From assembly GCA_964605095.1 (NCBI GenBank), contig CAZSBS010000001.1, positions 4,790-68,789 on the forward strand: a stretch of 64,000 nucleotides of DNA, given 5' to 3'. The notes beneath the pieces are model-generated. The model had not been told where the DNA came from and did no database searches. It worked only from the letters and a program-made list of their open reading frames with translations. The position numbers were made by a program, and so were the translations under genes. Source of the stretch: an uncultured Planctomycetaceae bacterium. GTDB lineage: Bacteria; Planctomycetota; Phycisphaerae; SM23-33. Shown here piece after piece: positions 27,503 to 34,492 of the stretch (position 1 is the stretch's first letter; each line of letters begins with the position of its first letter).

Positions 27503-27584
27503 TGCGAGAGGCGGGACTCGAACCCGCACCCCTTTCGGGACCAGGACCTAAACCTGGCGCGTCTGCCAATTCCGCCACCCTCGC
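27503..27584 (-). tRNA. tRNA-Leu (anticodon TAG), type II with long variable arm
   Basis: rc: GCGAGGGTGGCGGAATTGGCAGACGCGCCAGGTTTAGGTCCTGGTCCCGAAAGGGGTGCGGGTTCGAGTCCCGCCTCTCGCA; TPsiC-loop TTCGAGT; anticodon loop TTTAGGT. Confidence 0.85.
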
Positions 27585-27661
27585 GCGACCGCTGCCGCTC
27601 ACGGCGGAACATTGTCGCTTATAGAACTTATAGAAAAAGCCGGCCCGCCTTGCCAGCGTAT

Positions 27662-27706
27662 TCCGCCTTTTCCAGGTTCCGCCTTTTCCAGGTTCCGCCT
27701 TGTCTT
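27662..27706. repeat. tandem direct repeat of 16-mer ccgccttttccaggtt (2.7 copies)
   Basis: ttccgccttttccaggttccgccttttccaggttccgccttgtc in 690-bp noncoding region. Confidence 0.7.
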
Positions 27707-28151
27707 TTCCGTCGTTTCCCGAGTTCCGAGGGGCCTCCAGGGCTTCATTGTCCCCTGAAACTTGCAAAAACCCGACAATAAGAACGAGAATTACCATTGT
27801 CTTACACGGGGCGCCACGTTATGATTAGGTTAAGAGGCTGGATGTTTGGCTGCTCAGGCTTGATGGCAGGCCGGTTGCGTGAGCACATCGTCGGTGGCCC
27901 TGCGGCGCCGTACGAAAATATAAGTGAATGTTCGAATCTGGTTCTAGCTCTCCGGGCGAGCCGTTTCCAGGCTTGCCCAAGCGGGTCCACATCGGGCGGC
28001 CGCAAGGCGCCTTGGCCCGTCATGCCGATGGAGTACGTCTGGGCGATTTGGCCCGGCCGTACGTTTGCAAAGTGCCGCGTGCTCGGGTAATGCCTCCGGC
28101 GGGAGCACAGTTGCTTTTCCGTCGCGGCGCGAAGGTCGGGCATTGGCTCTC

Positions 28152-28276
28152 TTTTGCCGATTGCAACGGGCGCGACAGGCAGGTGGAAATGCGGTTCTCC
28201 GACAGGCCAGGCCTTTCGTGTCGGTAGGGACGCCCCGTTGCCGACGCCGAGGCCGCAGCGATGAGGAGATGCAATC
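28152..28276 (+). promoter_or_regulatory. conserved leader upstream of vWA paralog 1 (copy 1 of duplicated ~130-nt leader)
   Basis: ~80% identity over ~130 nt with 29527..29657 incl. shared RBS context gcgatgaggagatgcaaNcATGACC. Confidence 0.5.
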
Positions 28277-29491
28277 ATGACCATTGATTTCCGATGCGAA
28301 AACTGCGGGAAGCTGTTGAGTGTCGACGATCAGACCGGCAGCGCGGCGCGATGTCCGCATTGCCGCAAGAAAGTCACGGTCCCGGCCGCCCTGGCCGCAT
28401 TGCCCCGTCCGCACGTGCCGCCCACCGCCAGGTGCGCCACTGCTGGCTTGCCCGCCGTCGCGCAGGCGTCTGGCCAGGCTGATGGCCGGCCGGGGGAGCA
28501 AGAGCCCGTCGAGGGCGAGGCCGTCGCCGGCGCCATGGCCACGGCCATGCCATGGGTAATCAGCGCCTTCATGCACCTGGGCGTGTTCCTGGTCATGATC
28601 TTCTTCGTCATGGTGACGGTGGTCACCAAGATTCCGATTACTATCGACATACCTGAGGGGGTGAATGTCCATGAGAATCCTGGGGGCGTGATGAACCCCA
28701 AGACCGAGACGGTCTCCAAGATCGAAAGTGATCGACGGAGAGTCGTCAAGCGGGACGACCCCAAGCGGGAGGAACAGGTCGAGAGGGGCAAGACCGGCAA
28801 GAGGGTTGATCTTCTTGCTCCCTCGTCGGGTGGTGCCCGGGGCGGGGCGGCCGAATTGGGCCTGGACAACAGCGACGCGACGGGGGGGCCAGAGAGCACG
28901 TTCATCGGCGGTGGCGGCAGCGGTTTCCACATCGTGTTTGTGGTTGACCGTTCTGGCTCGATGGCTCCGACTTTCGAGCGAGTCAGGTTCGAGATGCTCA
29001 AGACCATCGCCCACTTTAAGAAGGAACAGGACTTTACGATCATCCTCTTCTCCGACAACCAGTACATCGAAGGGCCGCAGAAGCGCCTGGTCTTGGCGAC
29101 TGATGAGATCAAGGACGCGGCGACCGATTTTCTCAAGGACATAACCGCCAGCAACACGACCACGGTTTTACCAGCCCTGAAACGCGCGTTCGAGGTCCTC
29201 AAGTATGCCGACAAGGAGAAACCCGGCCGGCTCGTTTACCTGCTGAGCGACGGCGACTTTGCGGGCATGTCCGGCGGCTCGACATACACCGGCGCCGATG
29301 GCAGGGTCCTTAACGGCAACGAGGCCGTGGTCCAGTGGCTGCGGGACAACAACCCCAAGGATGAGGCGAAGGGCAGGATGCACGTTCACACGTTCCTCTA
29401 CCTCAGCAAAGACGAAGAGGCCATGAAGGTAATGAGAACCATCGCCCATGAGAACGGCGGGTGGTTCAAGCCAATTAGCGCCGATGAGTGA
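28277..29491 (+). CDS. zinc-ribbon / single-TM / periplasmic vWA-domain protein (paralog 1)
   Basis: FRCENCGKLL...CPHCRKKV C4 ribbon; TM WVISAFMHLGVFLVMIFFVMVTVV; vWA MIDAS VFVVDRSGSM...TT...LLSDGDF. Confidence 0.85.
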   Translation: MTIDFRCENCGKLLSVDDQTGSAARCPHCRKKVTVPAALAALPRPHVPPTARCATAGLPAVAQASGQADGRPGEQEPVEGEAVAGAMATAMPWVISAFMHLGVFLVMIFFVMVTVVTKIPITIDIPEGVNVHENPGGVMNPKTETVSKIESDRRRVVKRDDPKREEQVERGKTGKRVDLLAPSSGGARGGAAELGLDNSDATGGPESTFIGGGGSGFHIVFVVDRSGSMAPTFERVRFEMLKTIAHFKKEQDFTIILFSDNQYIEGPQKRLVLATDEIKDAATDFLKDITASNTTTVLPALKRAFEVLKYADKEKPGRLVYLLSDGDFAGMSGGSTYTGADGRVLNGNEAVVQWLRDNNPKDEAKGRMHVHTFLYLSKDEEAMKVMRTIAHENGGWFKPISADE

Positions 29492-29505
29492 TTCCGAGAA
29501 AACGC

Positions 29506-29661
29506 ATGTGTCAGACAAATGACTTTTTTGCCGATTGCCACCAGCGCGACGGGCTGGTAAAAATACGGTTCTCTGACAGGCAAGGGCTTTTGGCTTTTGT
29601 GTCGGCCGGGATGCCCCGTAGCCGACGGCGCCAGCGCAGCGATGAGGAGATGCAAGCATGA
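29506..29661 (+). CDS. 51-codon upstream ORF in leader of paralog 2; stop overlaps main ATG (ATGA)
   Basis: MCQTNDFFADCHQRDGLVKIRFSDRQGLLAFVSAGMPRSRRRQRSDEEMQA; homologous in-frame to 5' end of gene 30890 (MRQTTVIFAGICLAGG). Confidence 0.4.
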   Translation: MCQTNDFFADCHQRDGLVKIRFSDRQGLLAFVSAGMPRSRRRQRSDEEMQA

Positions 29662-30875
29662 CCGTTGATTTCCGATGCGAGAACTGCGGGAAGATGTTGA
29701 GTGTCGACGATCAGCCCGGCAACGCGGTTCGTTGTCCACATTGCCGCAAGAAAGTCACGGTGCCCGCGGTCCTGGCCGCGTTGCCCCGTCCGCACGTGCC
29801 CCCGAACGCCAGGCATGCCGGCTCTCATTCCGGCGGGCAGTCGCAAGGCCAGGCCGATGGCGAGCAGGACGAGCAGGGCGAGGAAGAGCCCGAAGAGGAG
29901 GGCCAGGCTGTAATGGGCGCCATGGCAACGATCATGCCCTGGGTCATCAGCGTCTTCCTGCACTTGGGCGTGTTCCTGGTCATGCTCTTCTTCGTCATGG
30001 TCGTGGTGAACACCAAGATTCCGCCGGAGATCATCATTCCGGACGCCGCGCTGAGCCTGGACAATCCCGGCGGCGTGATGGACCCCAAGACCGCGACGGT
30101 TTCCAAGAGCGAGAATGATCGGCGGACGGTCGTCAAGCGGTACACCAAGCGGGAGGACCAGGTCGACAAGGGCAAGACCGAGCAGACGGTTCAGCTTCTC
30201 GCGGCCTCATCGGACGGCGCTCACGGCGGCGCGGCCGACCTGGGCCTGACCAACAGTGACGCCGCCGGCGGACCCAAGAGCCGGTTCTTCGGCTCCGGCG
30301 GCAACGCATACCACATCGCGTACGTGGTGGACCGTTCGGGCTCGATGGCCCCGACGTTCGAGCAAGTCCGTATCGAGATGCTCAAGTCCATCAGCGGCCT
30401 TAAGGCGGTGCAGGACTTCACGATCATCCTTTTCTCCGACAACCAGTTCATCGAGGGTCCGCAGAAGCGGCTGGTCTCGGCGGAGCTTGAGAACAAGCTC
30501 GCGGCGAACAATTTCCTCAAGGACATAACCGCCCAGAGTTCGACCACGGTTTTGCCGGCCCTGAAGCGGGCGTTCCAGGTCCTCAAGTATGCCGACGCCA
30601 GCAAGCCAGGCCGGCTGGTTTACCTGCTGAGCGACGGCGACTTCGCGGGCATGTCCGGCGGCTCGACGTACACCAGCGCCGACGGCAGGGCCCTTAACGG
30701 CAACGAGGCCGTGATTCAGTGGCTGCGGGACAACAACCCCAAGGATGAGAAGAAGGGGCTGGTTCACGTCAACACGTTCCTCTACCTCAACAAGGACGAG
30801 GACGCCATGAAGGTAATGAAAACCATCGCCAAAGAGAACGCCGGCCGGTTCAAGCTCATCAGCTCCGACGAGTGA
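29658..30875 (+). CDS. zinc-ribbon / single-TM / periplasmic vWA-domain protein (paralog 2)
   Basis: 405 aa, ~70% identical to paralog 1; same C4 ribbon, TM and MIDAS motifs. Confidence 0.85.
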   Translation: MTVDFRCENCGKMLSVDDQPGNAVRCPHCRKKVTVPAVLAALPRPHVPPNARHAGSHSGGQSQGQADGEQDEQGEEEPEEEGQAVMGAMATIMPWVISVFLHLGVFLVMLFFVMVVVNTKIPPEIIIPDAALSLDNPGGVMDPKTATVSKSENDRRTVVKRYTKREDQVDKGKTEQTVQLLAASSDGAHGGAADLGLTNSDAAGGPKSRFFGSGGNAYHIAYVVDRSGSMAPTFEQVRIEMLKSISGLKAVQDFTIILFSDNQFIEGPQKRLVSAELENKLAANNFLKDITAQSSTTVLPALKRAFQVLKYADASKPGRLVYLLSDGDFAGMSGGSTYTSADGRALNGNEAVIQWLRDNNPKDEKKGLVHVNTFLYLNKDEDAMKVMKTIAKENAGRFKLISSDE

Positions 30876-30889
30876 TTCCGGGAGATAGC

Positions 30890-31963
30890 ATGCGTCAGAC
30901 AACTGTCATTTTCGCGGGGATATGCCTGGCCGGCGGGCTGGCCTTTGCGGACTCGCTGACCATCAACAACCTCCCGTATGACAATGTGCGCGTCACCGAC
31001 GTTTCCAAAGGCACGATAACCTACGAGCTTAGCGGGCGCAGGTACGACAAGCCTCTGGCCGAAGTCAGCCGCGTGGTGCTGAGCGGCCAGAGGGACTTCA
31101 ACAAGGCCGAGGACGCCTTCAAGGCCGGCAAGTTTGCCGATGCCGTCGCGGCCTACACCGAGGCTGAAAAGTCCACCGATAAGCTCGACTGGCTGCGTCG
31201 GCTGATCCGCTATCGCCGCATTCCCGCGGCCGACGCGGCGAAAATGCCGGGCCAGGCCGTCGCGGACTGGTTGAGCGTCGTCGACGACGCCGGTGCCAGC
31301 CGGGCCGTGATAGCCATGGCCCCGGAAGCGGTCGCCCCCAAGGGCTCGCCCGATAACGCCTTGGCGATGGAGCTGCTGAAAAAACGCCTCGGCAAGGGCG
31401 ATCCGATATTCCGCGCCAAGGTCAAGGACCTGCTGCTTAATCTCTATGCTGCCGAGGACCTCAAAGACAAGGCGATGCTGCTCCAGGGCGAAGGGCCGGC
31501 CACCGCCCCCGGCGGCGAGCAGGCGCCCCCGCCGCTGGTGGTCTCGGTCGAGCAGGTCTCCAGGCAGTTGCAGGAGGCCGCCAGCCAGATCAAGCTCGGC
31601 CAGTACGACGCCGCGGCTGAGAGCATAAAGGCGAAGCTTAACCGGTTTACCAGCAGTGAGCTTCCAGGCGCGCTGGTGCTTCGGGGCAAGGCGCTTCAGT
31701 TGTCATACGAGAAGGGCGGCTCCAAGGATGTCAAGAAGCTCAAGGAGGCTGGGCTGTGCTTCATGCGCGTTGCGGCATGTTGCGACCCTACCACCCCGCA
31801 GGTGCCGGAGGCCCTTTACCTCGCGGCGATGGTCGAGCGTGTACTGGGCAACCATGTCGCGGCCGCCAATGCGATGCGGATGTTGATCGCCCGGTACGCC
31901 GCGAGCGAGTGGGCCCAGAGGGCCCAGACCGCGTTGGGCGGTGCCGCCGGGCCGGAGAAGTAA
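30890..31963 (+). CDS. secreted alpha-helical protein of unknown function
   Basis: RBS ggaga 30881; signal peptide MRQTTVIFAGICLAGGLAFA; Ala/Lys-rich helical composition. Confidence 0.65.
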   Translation: MRQTTVIFAGICLAGGLAFADSLTINNLPYDNVRVTDVSKGTITYELSGRRYDKPLAEVSRVVLSGQRDFNKAEDAFKAGKFADAVAAYTEAEKSTDKLDWLRRLIRYRRIPAADAAKMPGQAVADWLSVVDDAGASRAVIAMAPEAVAPKGSPDNALAMELLKKRLGKGDPIFRAKVKDLLLNLYAAEDLKDKAMLLQGEGPATAPGGEQAPPPLVVSVEQVSRQLQEAASQIKLGQYDAAAESIKAKLNRFTSSELPGALVLRGKALQLSYEKGGSKDVKKLKEAGLCFMRVAACCDPTTPQVPEALYLAAMVERVLGNHVAAANAMRMLIARYAASEWAQRAQTALGGAAGPEK

Positions 31964-33376: not shown

Positions 33377-33883
33377 ATGGCTATTACAGCAAACAAACCG
33401 GTGGAAGGCGACGAGACAGTCCACCATGTATCGCCCAGCAAGGAAAAGGACAAGCCGAAGGCGAGCATGCAGCCGCCGATGACGCCGATGATCGACGTCA
33501 CGTTCCAGTTGCTGCTGTTCTTCATCCTCACGTTCGAGTTCCGCGAGTCGGAAGGCATGATCCCGGGCACGCTGCCGAACAAGGGCTCCATTGCCCAGTC
33601 GGTCACCGACACTCCGCCGCCGGACCCGATCCAGATCCGCGTGATCCCCTCGGCAAACAAGGAAACCGCCAGCTACGAGATGACCGGAATCGGCGTGGCG
33701 ATTGCGACCCCGCACGATCTCGGTGAGCTTCTCAAGCAGCGGCGGGAGCAGATAGGCAGCACGGAAGTGCCCATAGTGATATTTCCCAGCCAGGACGTGC
33801 CCTGGGGGTTCGTCGTCGAGGCGTTCAACCAGGCCAAGAGGGCGAATTTCCAGAAGATCGGTTTTGCCCAGCAGATAATGTGA
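33377..33883 (+). CDS. ExbD/TolR-family protein (paralog 2)
   Basis: ...QPPMTPMIDVTFQLLLFFILTFEF... ; C-term ...VPWGFVVEAFNQAKRANFQKIGFAQ. Confidence 0.78.
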   Translation: MAITANKPVEGDETVHHVSPSKEKDKPKASMQPPMTPMIDVTFQLLLFFILTFEFRESEGMIPGTLPNKGSIAQSVTDTPPPDPIQIRVIPSANKETASYEMTGIGVAIATPHDLGELLKQRREQIGSTEVPIVIFPSQDVPWGFVVEAFNQAKRANFQKIGFAQQIM

Positions 33884-33985
33884 CTTATCCGCGCCGGGCG
33901 GGTGATGCCGCGGCAGGCTGGGCATGAGAAGAATGAGCGACATCGCCCGTTTGGATGGCGAAAGGCTCTGCCAAGGGAGACTATC

Positions 33986-34492
33986 ATGGCGATTTCTACA
34001 AGCAGGACGGTAGAAGGCGACGAGAAAGTCCACCATAAGGCGCCCGCCGGAAAGCCAAAGGGCTCAGCCAACCTCCAGCCGCCCATGACCCCGATGATCG
34101 ACGTGACGTTCCAACTGCTGCTGTTCTTCCTGCTGACCTGCGAGTTCCGAGAGTCCGAAGGGGCGATACCCGGCACGCTGCCCCGGATCGACAATGGGCT
34201 GGTTGTTAGGCCTCCAGTTCCGCCCCAGTCGGACCCGATCGAGATCCGGCTGCGTCCCTCCGCCGACCGGCAGTCGGCAAGTTACCAACTGACCGGAGTG
34301 GCCACGGTTATCACGAGCGTCCGTGAGTTGGGCGACCTGCTCCGGGTTCGCCAGGAGCAGCTTGGCAGCGGGGAGGTGCCGGTGGTGATATACCCCAACC
34401 CGGATGTGCCCTGGGGGTTTGTCGTTGAGGCGTTCAACCAGGCCAAGAGGGCGAGGTTCAGCAAGATCGGCTTTGCCCAGGGAATACTGTAA
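33986..34492 (+). CDS. ExbD/TolR-family protein (paralog 3, recent duplicate of paralog 2)
   Basis: ATG 33986; ...QPPMTPMIDVTFQLLLFFLLTCEF...VPWGFVVEAFNQAKRARFSKIGFAQ near-identical blocks to paralog 2. Confidence 0.78.
   Translation: MAISTSRTVEGDEKVHHKAPAGKPKGSANLQPPMTPMIDVTFQLLLFFLLTCEFRESEGAIPGTLPRIDNGLVVRPPVPPQSDPIEIRLRPSADRQSASYQLTGVATVITSVRELGDLLRVRQEQLGSGEVPVVIYPNPDVPWGFVVEAFNQAKRARFSKIGFAQGIL

Follow-up and report, generated by a model that had tools for sequence, protein, structure and literature searches.

The analyzed window, a stretch of 64,000 nt from an uncultured Planctomycetaceae bacterium with a GC content of 62%, contains two adjoining vWA genes on the + strand, and the gap between them is bridged by a 51-codon ORF that ends on the start codon of the second gene. 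This arrangement raises the question whether translation of the second gene is coupled to that of a short upstream ORF or whether the overlap has another origin, and it also raises the question where the leaders that precede both genes came from. The explanation that we consider the best one as a whole, and quite probably the correct one, is that one tandem duplication copied an ancestral promoter/5′-UTR leader together with the gene, and that the ORF is a by-product. The features of the locus are compiled in Table 1.

Both vWA proteins consist of an N-terminal zinc ribbon, a transmembrane (TM) helix and a VWA_2 domain (Pfam), and they are 74% identical. The genes 3′ of the paralogs encode, in this order, a signal-peptide/TPR-like protein of 357 aa, the start of which is called 15 nt after the stop codon of paralog 2 (14-nt spacer), a MotA/ExbB protein, three ExbD proteins and a large TPR protein. 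Upstream of the vWA genes, a tRNA-Leu gene is located on the minus strand (27503-27584). Homologs of the vWA proteins are abundant in Planctomycetota metagenomes. Inner-membrane-tethered vWA proteins that are encoded beside TPR, tolQ-like and paired tolR-like genes have been described for the PVC group, and they were proposed to be TolA/TonB-like force transducers, the function of which is not known (PMC12204202). By sequence and gene neighbourhood, the paralogs appear to fit into this family. They share the TM helix, in which S98 and H102 do not vary among 31 homologs, the linker and the C-terminal vWA domain, and they are likewise encoded beside TPR-like, MotA/ExbB and three ExbD genes. In contrast to the described cases, the vWA genes are located upstream of the motor genes, and the proteins have an N-terminal zinc ribbon. 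The recently proposed family of vWA force transducers and its link to ExbB/ExbD-type motors make the surroundings of the junction ORF of more value than the ORF itself.

Table 1. Positions of genes, duplicated units, regulatory elements (observed or predicted) and the junction ORF in the window.
Feature	Position	Strand	Remarks
Upstream promoter-like site	27797-27825	+	TTGTCT-17-TATGAT; precedes the RNA motif by about 120 nt; consensus scan
Three-helix RNA motif	27945-28032	+	88 nt; upstream of leader 1, outside the duplicated unit; covariation
Leader 1	28149-28276	+	−35-like TTGCAA at 28161-28166; degenerate −10 TGGAAAT; SD GAGGAG
Duplication unit, copy 1	28149-29522	+	leader 1, paralog 1 and the first ~35 nt past its stop; repeats, local alignment
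vWA paralog 1	28277-29491	+	404 aa; the faster-evolving copy; Pfam, tree, identities
Junction relic	29489-29527	+	paralog stop, 14-nt spacer, start codon and ~6-7 codons of the downstream gene
Junction ORF	29506-29661	+	51 codons; from the relic ATG through promoter and 5′-UTR (both predicted) to ATGA
Leader 2	29523-29657	+	ancestral promoter/5′-UTR element (promoter predicted); aligns with single-copy leaders
Duplication unit, copy 2	29523-30906	+	leader 2, paralog 2 and the authentic 5′ end of the downstream gene
Predicted sigma-70-like promoter	29535-29564	+	TTGCCA 29535-29540, 18-nt spacer, AAAAAT 29559-29564; consensus scan
Conserved GTTCTC(C/T)	29568-29574	+	predicted anti-SD strand at the predicted mRNA 5′ end; pairs with GGAGAT in RNAalifold
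7-nt tandem duplication	29585-29598	+	GGCTTTT GGCTTTT; in 1 of 14 aligned leaders (leader 2 of the window)
Shine-Dalgarno motif	29644-29649	+	GAGGAG, 8 nt before the paralog-2 ATG; AGGAG core invariant; spacing of 7-8 nt in outgroups
vWA paralog 2	29658-30875	+	405 aa; the slower-evolving copy
Downstream gene	30890-31963	+	357 aa; signal peptide, weak TPR matches; start region partly duplicated

The repeats within the locus form two head-to-tail units of about 1.38 kb. Four repeat families (D1-D4) are spaced by 1374-1387 nt, and the local alignment of the two units begins at 28149 and 29523, respectively. The first-pass annotation had stated that the sequence after the stop codon of paralog 1 aligns with that after the stop codon of paralog 2, and this was confirmed: 29489-29527 and 30873-30911 share 32 of 39 bases, and the local score of 38 was not reached by any of 1000 dinucleotide shuffles (mean 11.0, sd 2.0). 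Past the junction, the similarity between 29528-29657 and 30912-31100 was at chance level, with 486 of 1000 shuffles scoring as well. An apparent 8/10 match to the downstream gene at 29549-29558 lies inside this non-significant stretch and was thus discarded. The unit had been proposed to comprise the vWA gene and about 100 bp of the next gene; it does reach into that gene, but only by about 20 coding nt (39 nt aligned). When compared with single-copy relatives, both breakpoints lie in a T-run microhomology that they share, with CTCTTTTGCC on the upstream side and CATTTTCGC on the downstream side.

The contigs of homologs yielded three further two-copy loci (L161, L163 and L081). The same junction is present in all of them, which argues for one old event. 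The annotation had also postulated at least two rounds of duplication with loss of an upstream copy. A second, older duplication should have left a relic 5′ of leader 1, but a comparison of the 100 nt upstream of 28149 with the end of paralog 1 revealed none (494/1000 shuffles), and one event is sufficient. The duplication architecture is thus firmly established; judged from the sequences, a single tandem duplication explains the whole structure, and it is older than the split of the lineages of the window, L161 and L163/L081.

In the proposed mechanism, one ancient duplication of about 1.38 kb copied an existing regulatory leader, the vWA gene and the ~35 nt that follow its stop codon. The left breakpoint is situated about 10 nt 5′ of the −35 hexamer in the predicted promoter that belongs to the vWA gene, and the right breakpoint about 20 nt into the next gene. 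The junction places the ribosome-binding site of the next gene, now decayed, its ATG and 6-7 codons directly before the second copy of the promoter/5′-UTR. Because the unit spans promoter and 5′-UTR, each paralog would have inherited its own transcription and translation signals. Two head-to-tail units with a single novel junction, breakpoints in T-rich microhomology and a truncated start of the next gene at the junction all resemble tandem duplications by unequal or microhomology-mediated recombination. The present case is notable only in that the unit starts just 5′ of the promoter, so that the copy is regulatorily self-sufficient, and in this respect it is a clean textbook case of how a self-sufficient second gene copy can be formed. 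The duplication junction itself is an ordinary feature on an ancestral promoter/5′-UTR.

The origin of the leaders was analyzed with an alignment of 14 leaders, which included the two copies of the window as well as leaders from two-copy and single-copy loci. The leaders have a length of 128-135 nt. Leader 1 (28149-28274) and leader 2 (29523-29655) are clearly homologous, with a z-score of 47 and an identity of 85.7% over the aligned bases. An identity of about 80% and a 7-nt indel that disrupts leader 1 had been reported before. Homology and indel are real, but the indel is an insertion in leader 2 and not a lesion in leader 1. It was absent from the 13 other aligned leaders; it is private to leader 2, and copy 2 therefore represents the derived state. 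This shows that the direction of an indel can only be assigned with outgroups.

The annotation had interpreted the leaders as degenerate copies of the 5′ end of the downstream gene, and it had named in advance the observation that would speak against this view, i.e., orthologous single-copy loci that already carry the leader. Such loci were found. The leader is present directly 5′ of the lone vWA gene in at least 10 single-copy loci (L162, L164, L173, L165-L168, L174, L002 and L175). In addition, a comparison of leader 1 with the initial 210 nt of the downstream gene revealed no similarity (972/1000 shuffles; z = 2.0 for a non-collinear match), and leader 2 did not exceed the chance level mentioned above. 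In the protein tree, L162 and L164 group with paralog 2, and L165 and L167 fall outside the clades of both paralogs. The single-copy loci with a position outside these clades are L165-L168, L174, L002/L175, L169 and L082. L162 and L164 were also considered as secondary collapses by recombination between paralogs, but sliding-window identities did not reveal a mosaic of a 5′ part from paralog 1 and a 3′ part from paralog 2. For the ancestry of the leader this question is immaterial, because true outgroups also carry it. The comparative data leave the ancestry of the leader in no real doubt: the leader is evidently an ancestral element that is older than the duplication, and not a relic of the duplication.

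The divergence of the two leaders is 14%, compared with a pS of 0.31 for the adjacent coding sequences. The leaders diverge less than synonymous sites, which indicates that the leader is under constraint. A conserved small protein in the leader was considered and discarded, as in-frame stop codons occur in L165 and L167 and the indels are not multiples of three.

The pattern of conservation most likely represents a sigma-70-type promoter, followed by a 5′-UTR of about 90 nt that ends with the SD motif GAGGAG, with the reservation that the promoter activity is deduced from consensus and conservation and promoters of Planctomycetota are poorly characterized. In the 5′ part of the 14-leader alignment, CCGATTGCCA is conserved and is followed by a spacer of fixed length and variable sequence. 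The spacer is followed by a conserved TGGTA(A/G)AAAT and then by ACGGTTCTCCGACAGG(C/A)CAGGACTTTCG..TCGGCCGG, the conservation of which is very high. After a variable stretch, the leaders end with an invariant SD motif (GAGGAG or AGGAGA) at a distance of 7-8 nt from the ATG. The conserved hexamers and the fixed spacer length were also found in the leaders of L174 and L002.

In a consensus scan, the site TTGCCA-18-AAAAAT of leader 2 scored 9/12, and only one other promoter-like site was called in the 3.9 kb scanned. It can alternatively be read with a 17-nt spacer that ends with TGG and is followed by TAAAAA (TTGCCA-N17/18-TAAAAAT). Promoter-like sites were called at the orthologous positions in L162 (TTGCCA-18-AAAAAT) and L174 (TTGCCA-18-TAAGAT); the number of sites expected by chance is 0.2-0.7 per region. 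The scan called no promoter at leader 1. The −10 hexamers of L165-L168 (AGAAAT or AATAAT) do not pass it, and the site of L165 (AGAAAT) was not called either. Based on the promoter, the transcription start is predicted to be near 29570, about 65 nt 3′ of the ATG of the junction ORF.

The conserved 5′ end of the UTR, GUUCUCC, may pair with the SD motif. The predicted GUUCUCC/GGAGAU helix has 5-7 bp and is preserved in the majority of the leaders, L002 shows one compensatory change, and GTTCTCC is retained in L174 though the remainder of the UTR has diverged. The covariation term of RNAalifold for the leader is small (−1.02 kcal/mol), and the promoter part remains unpaired. The z-scores for the folding of the UTRs were inconsistent (−3.1, −2.3, +0.5, −0.4 and −0.1). 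A stable fold of the 5′-UTR was therefore discarded, as the energies are not consistently better than those of shuffled sequences and covariation is minimal. A scan of the leader against Rfam at permissive thresholds yielded no family match. RNA thermometers and the platforms of translational riboswitches are 5′-UTRs that sequester the SD motif. The predicted pairing, which would close the UTR of about 90 nt, resembles these elements, but they differ from the present case, which has no Rfam match, a helix of only 5-7 bp, minimal covariation and inconsistent stability.

The region upstream of leader 1 contains a further conserved element. The sequence 27945-28032 has nucleotide identities of 74-89% in loci that encode vWA proteins with identities of only about 40-70%. 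The three-helix structure of this RNA motif has standard base pairs in 93.5% of the cells (24 sequences), 11 of 20 pairs are changed on both sides, and none of 500 shuffles reached any of five measures. When the pairing partner was slid by 1-3 columns as a control, only 31-54% of the cells could pair. The frequent G-U pairs indicate that it is the + strand that is transcribed. A covariance model found one copy in the window and matches in about 35 Planctomycetota loci, five of which had not been used for building the model. With one marginal exception, the matches are located upstream of the first vWA gene and have the same orientation. Comparison of the motif with Rfam at permissive filters yielded only ASpks (14 bits, cut-off 52) and isrB (14 bits, cut-off 35), and the tRNA-Leu was the sole real match of the Rfam scan.

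A covarying hairpin is located 3′ of the motif, and further hairpins extend to about 28150. The distance between the end of the motif and the ATG is only 72 nt in L087. A natural deletion of about 165 nt in L161 joins the motif directly to the GTTCTCC of the paralog-1 5′-UTR, and the gene is intact. Both arrangements are compatible with a cis-regulatory role of the motif. The duplicated unit begins just 3′ of the structured region, and paralog 2 therefore has the leader without the motif. The upstream promoter-like site was also called at orthologous positions in L162, L174 and L165, with the consensus TTGTC(T/C)-17-TAT.AT. As this conserved site and the RNA motif both precede the leader, and as the deletion in L161 fuses the motif to the 5′-UTR, the leader could also be transcribed from upstream, as part of a long 5′-UTR. 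The conserved predicted promoter/5′-UTR and the RNA motif offer handles on the regulation of a vWA-ExbB/ExbD-type motor system. A literature search for RNA motifs described in connection with these genes yielded nothing but the force-transducer paper (PMC12204202).

The ORF in the gap is intact, as had been annotated, with 51 codons, the quoted translation and a stop codon (TGA, 29659-29661) that overlaps the ATG of paralog 2 at 29658. The letters shared in the ATGA are TG, however, and not the A. The ATG of the ORF is the duplicated start codon of the downstream gene, and it is the private 7-nt insertion that brings this ATG into the reading frame of the TGA. The ATGA overlap exists because the second codon of the gene is ACC. 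It occurs in all 10 aligned copies with ACC as second codon, which include paralog 1 as well as the single-copy loci L162, L164 and L173.

Peptide, frame and start codon of the ORF are plainly not conserved among the other two-copy genomes. The relic ATG of L161 does open an ORF that extends to the start codon of the gene (TAATG), but most of this ORF, including its middle, corresponds to another frame of the homologous DNA. L163 and L081 have a GTG in place of the relic ATG, and the frame runs past the ATG of paralog 2, out of frame. In L165 and L167, stop codons are present in the corresponding frames. The frame was open in 836 of 5000 dinucleotide shuffles (17%), and the window has 265 ATG-ORFs of at least 51 codons. 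At a GC content of 62%, ATGA overlaps and open frames of 50 codons are weak evidence.

The ATGA stop-start overlap is known from the trp operon of E. coli, in which it couples adjacent genes. The junction ORF resembles this case in that it ends in an ATGA on the start of paralog 2. It differs in that the upstream frame is not a conserved gene, in that the overlap is also found where no upstream ORF exists, and in that the ORF starts 5′ of the predicted transcription start. Short ORFs 5′ of a gene are also known as regulatory leader peptides and upstream ORFs of the trpL, ermCL and tnaC types. In contrast to these, neither regulatory codons nor an attenuator were identified for the junction ORF, its peptide, start codon and frame are not conserved, and it is the product of the duplication junction and of the private insertion of 7 nt.

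A functional role would require that ribosomes leaving paralog 1 reinitiate at the ATG at 29506, terminate at the ATGA and reinitiate again, so that paralog 2 alone would be coupled in this way, as the annotation had proposed. The ORF starts 14 nt after the stop codon of paralog 1, a spacing as in the real downstream gene. No terminator was found in a scan of the region between the paralogs, which makes read-through transcripts that contain the ORF plausible. A bridging ORF is kept in two of three independent two-copy lineages (the window and L161), which is mildly unlikely at an estimated chance of roughly 0.07 per lineage. Furthermore, the intergenic region is identical in three samples of the same population (L170-L172); these contigs came from a search for further two-copy lineages, which otherwise yielded only the single-copy loci L173-L175. 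These observations, together with the intact frame and its overlap, favor coupling. They are outweighed by the missing conservation of the peptide, the GTG starts in L163 and L081 with their out-of-frame passage across the gene start, the dependence of the frame on a private insertion, the fraction of shuffles with an open frame and the origin of the ATGA in an ACC codon. In addition, the SD motif of the relic has decayed from GGGAGA to CGAGAA (weakened to GAGAAA), and paralog 2 has its own conserved SD motif and a predicted promoter 3′ of the ATG of the ORF. Transcripts from this predicted promoter would lack that ATG, and the ORF would be translatable only on read-through transcripts from paralog 1. 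We thus regard coupling by the ORF as very unlikely. The ORF is most likely an accidental by-product of the duplication junction, which brought a relic ATG into frame, through the 7-nt duplication of this lineage, with the TGA that every ATG-ACC start contains. This illustrates how, in a GC-rich genome, an upstream ORF that looks plausible can arise by accident at a duplication junction. That the similarity of the leaders is caused by gene conversion between the tandem copies, and not by selection, appears extremely unlikely to us. The leaders, 86% alike, do exceed the similarity at synonymous sites, and the first ~220 nt of the units are their most similar block (87%, repeat family D3). However, the leader is also kept in single-copy genomes, in which conversion is impossible. 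Moreover, paralog-specific differences are common across genomes (the −10 hexamer, ATC versus ATA/AGC before the ATG, and ACC ATT versus ACC GTT), which shows that the copies have evolved apart since before those lineages split.

A further alternative concerns the nature of the leader and not its age. The leader could be the expression platform of a long 5′-UTR that starts at the promoter-like site at 27797-27825 and runs through the RNA motif; the duplication would have copied the platform only, and paralog 2 would escape the motif. The covarying motif is located 5′ of the first vWA gene and shares its orientation, and the arrangements in L087 and L161 bring it close to the gene or to GTTCTCC. 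The helix with the SD motif, its compensatory change in L002 and the retention of GTTCTCC in L174 also agree with this view. In contrast, the core of the leader is conserved like a promoter, i.e., in two hexamers and in the length of a variable spacer, and not like a helix, RNAalifold leaves this core unpaired with hardly any covariation, and the z-scores of the UTRs range from −3.1 to +0.5. On balance, a platform of this kind seems rather improbable to us, albeit worth considering. The two models are compatible with one another, as tandem promoters are possible. An extended version, in which a cis-acting RNA without an Rfam match controls the vWA/TPR/ExbB-ExbD operon and in which platform and internal promoter were duplicated but the sensing motif was not, is likewise given a minor share of our confidence. 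If it were true, one paralog would be under riboregulation and the other would have escaped it.

The dN/dS values were 0.35-0.38 for paralog 1 and its orthologs and 0.29-0.30 for paralog 2, and values of 0.29-0.38 indicate that both paralogs are under purifying selection. Paralog 1 is evidently evolving faster than paralog 2, as seen from identities to the outgroups of 64-68% and 72-80%, respectively. Paralog 1 has a degenerate −10 hexamer (TGGAAAT) not only in the window but also in L163 and L081 (first copies, L163_a and L081_a), and in L161_a the deletion removes the whole promoter part of the leader. The hexamer of the upstream copy would thus have decayed after the duplication. Copy 2, with an intact predicted promoter, fronts the rest of the operon. 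As a separate observation, the fusion of the RNA motif to the paralog-1 5′-UTR by the deletion of about 165 nt in L161 counts against a reading of the leader as a promoter only.

A three-helix RNA motif was identified upstream of the first zinc-ribbon/vWA gene, outside of the duplicated unit (see the table). Its structure was supported by covariation: 11 of the 20 pairs vary on both sides, 93.5% of the cells are paired, and none of 500 shuffles was as good. A comparison with Rfam did not yield a credible family match for the motif. It is present at about 35 loci of Planctomycetota, where it precedes the first zinc-ribbon/vWA gene and shares its orientation, with one marginal exception among the matches, and it occurs only once in the window. 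The motif is a candidate for a new cis-regulatory RNA or a small RNA.

Features at and around the vWA locus
Feature	Position	Strand	Basis or remark
Perfect tandem repeat, 16-nt unit, TTCCGCCTTTTCCAGG x2	27661-27692	+	
Promoter-like site TTGTCT-17-TATGAT	27797-27825	+	~120 nt 5′ of RNA motif
Three-helix RNA motif, 88 nt	27945-28032	+	covariation
Hairpin region after RNA motif	28033-28150	+	predicted stems; covariation of first hairpin
Deletion of ~165 nt in L161	L161 4554-4560 = window 28033-28195		one relative
Second and third ExbD genes	33377-33883 and 33902-34492	+	N-terminal similarity

Counterparts of the promoter-like site were also called at the orthologous positions of three single-copy loci (L162, L174, and L165), and at distant loci TGTAGAAT or TATAAT was found 60–70 nt 5′ of the motif. 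Directly 3′ of the motif, a first hairpin (GUACG..CUGGGC/GCCCGG..CGUAC, followed by GUUUGC) was predicted, and its stem covaries to GUGCG/CGCAC in the comparison with L162 and L165. A second, larger stem-loop is predicted to extend to the duplication breakpoint. In distant loci, GCGGTG is conserved 3′ of the motif. A natural deletion in L161, a two-copy relative, removed the hairpins together with the promoter-like part of leader 1 and joined the RNA motif directly to the GTTCTCC of the 5′-UTR, and nevertheless the paralog-1 gene remained intact.

Adjacent zinc-ribbon/vWA gene pairs were also found in many distant relatives (L088, L090, L098, L017, L008, L005, L011, L100, and L104). At these loci the C-terminal end of a further vWA protein is encoded immediately 5′ of the gene that was matched, and therefore tandem pairs in this family arose or persisted more than once. 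Short-read assemblies from the population of the window itself end at or near the duplicated leader: the L001 contig begins 33 nt before paralog 2, and the L170–L172 contigs stop just after paralog 1. The repeat thus fragments assemblies, and metagenomes may give too low a copy number.

Further downstream, the N-terminal halves of the second and third ExbD proteins are closely alike, e.g., MAITANKPVEGDETVHH...MTPMIDVTFQLLLFF versus MAISTSRTVEGDEKVHH...MTPMIDVTFQLLLFF, and judged by sequence the two genes look like a further tandem duplicate. L162 has only two ExbD genes, and most relatives have three. At the other end of the region, the short tandem repeat lies about 75 nt away from a tRNA-Leu gene.
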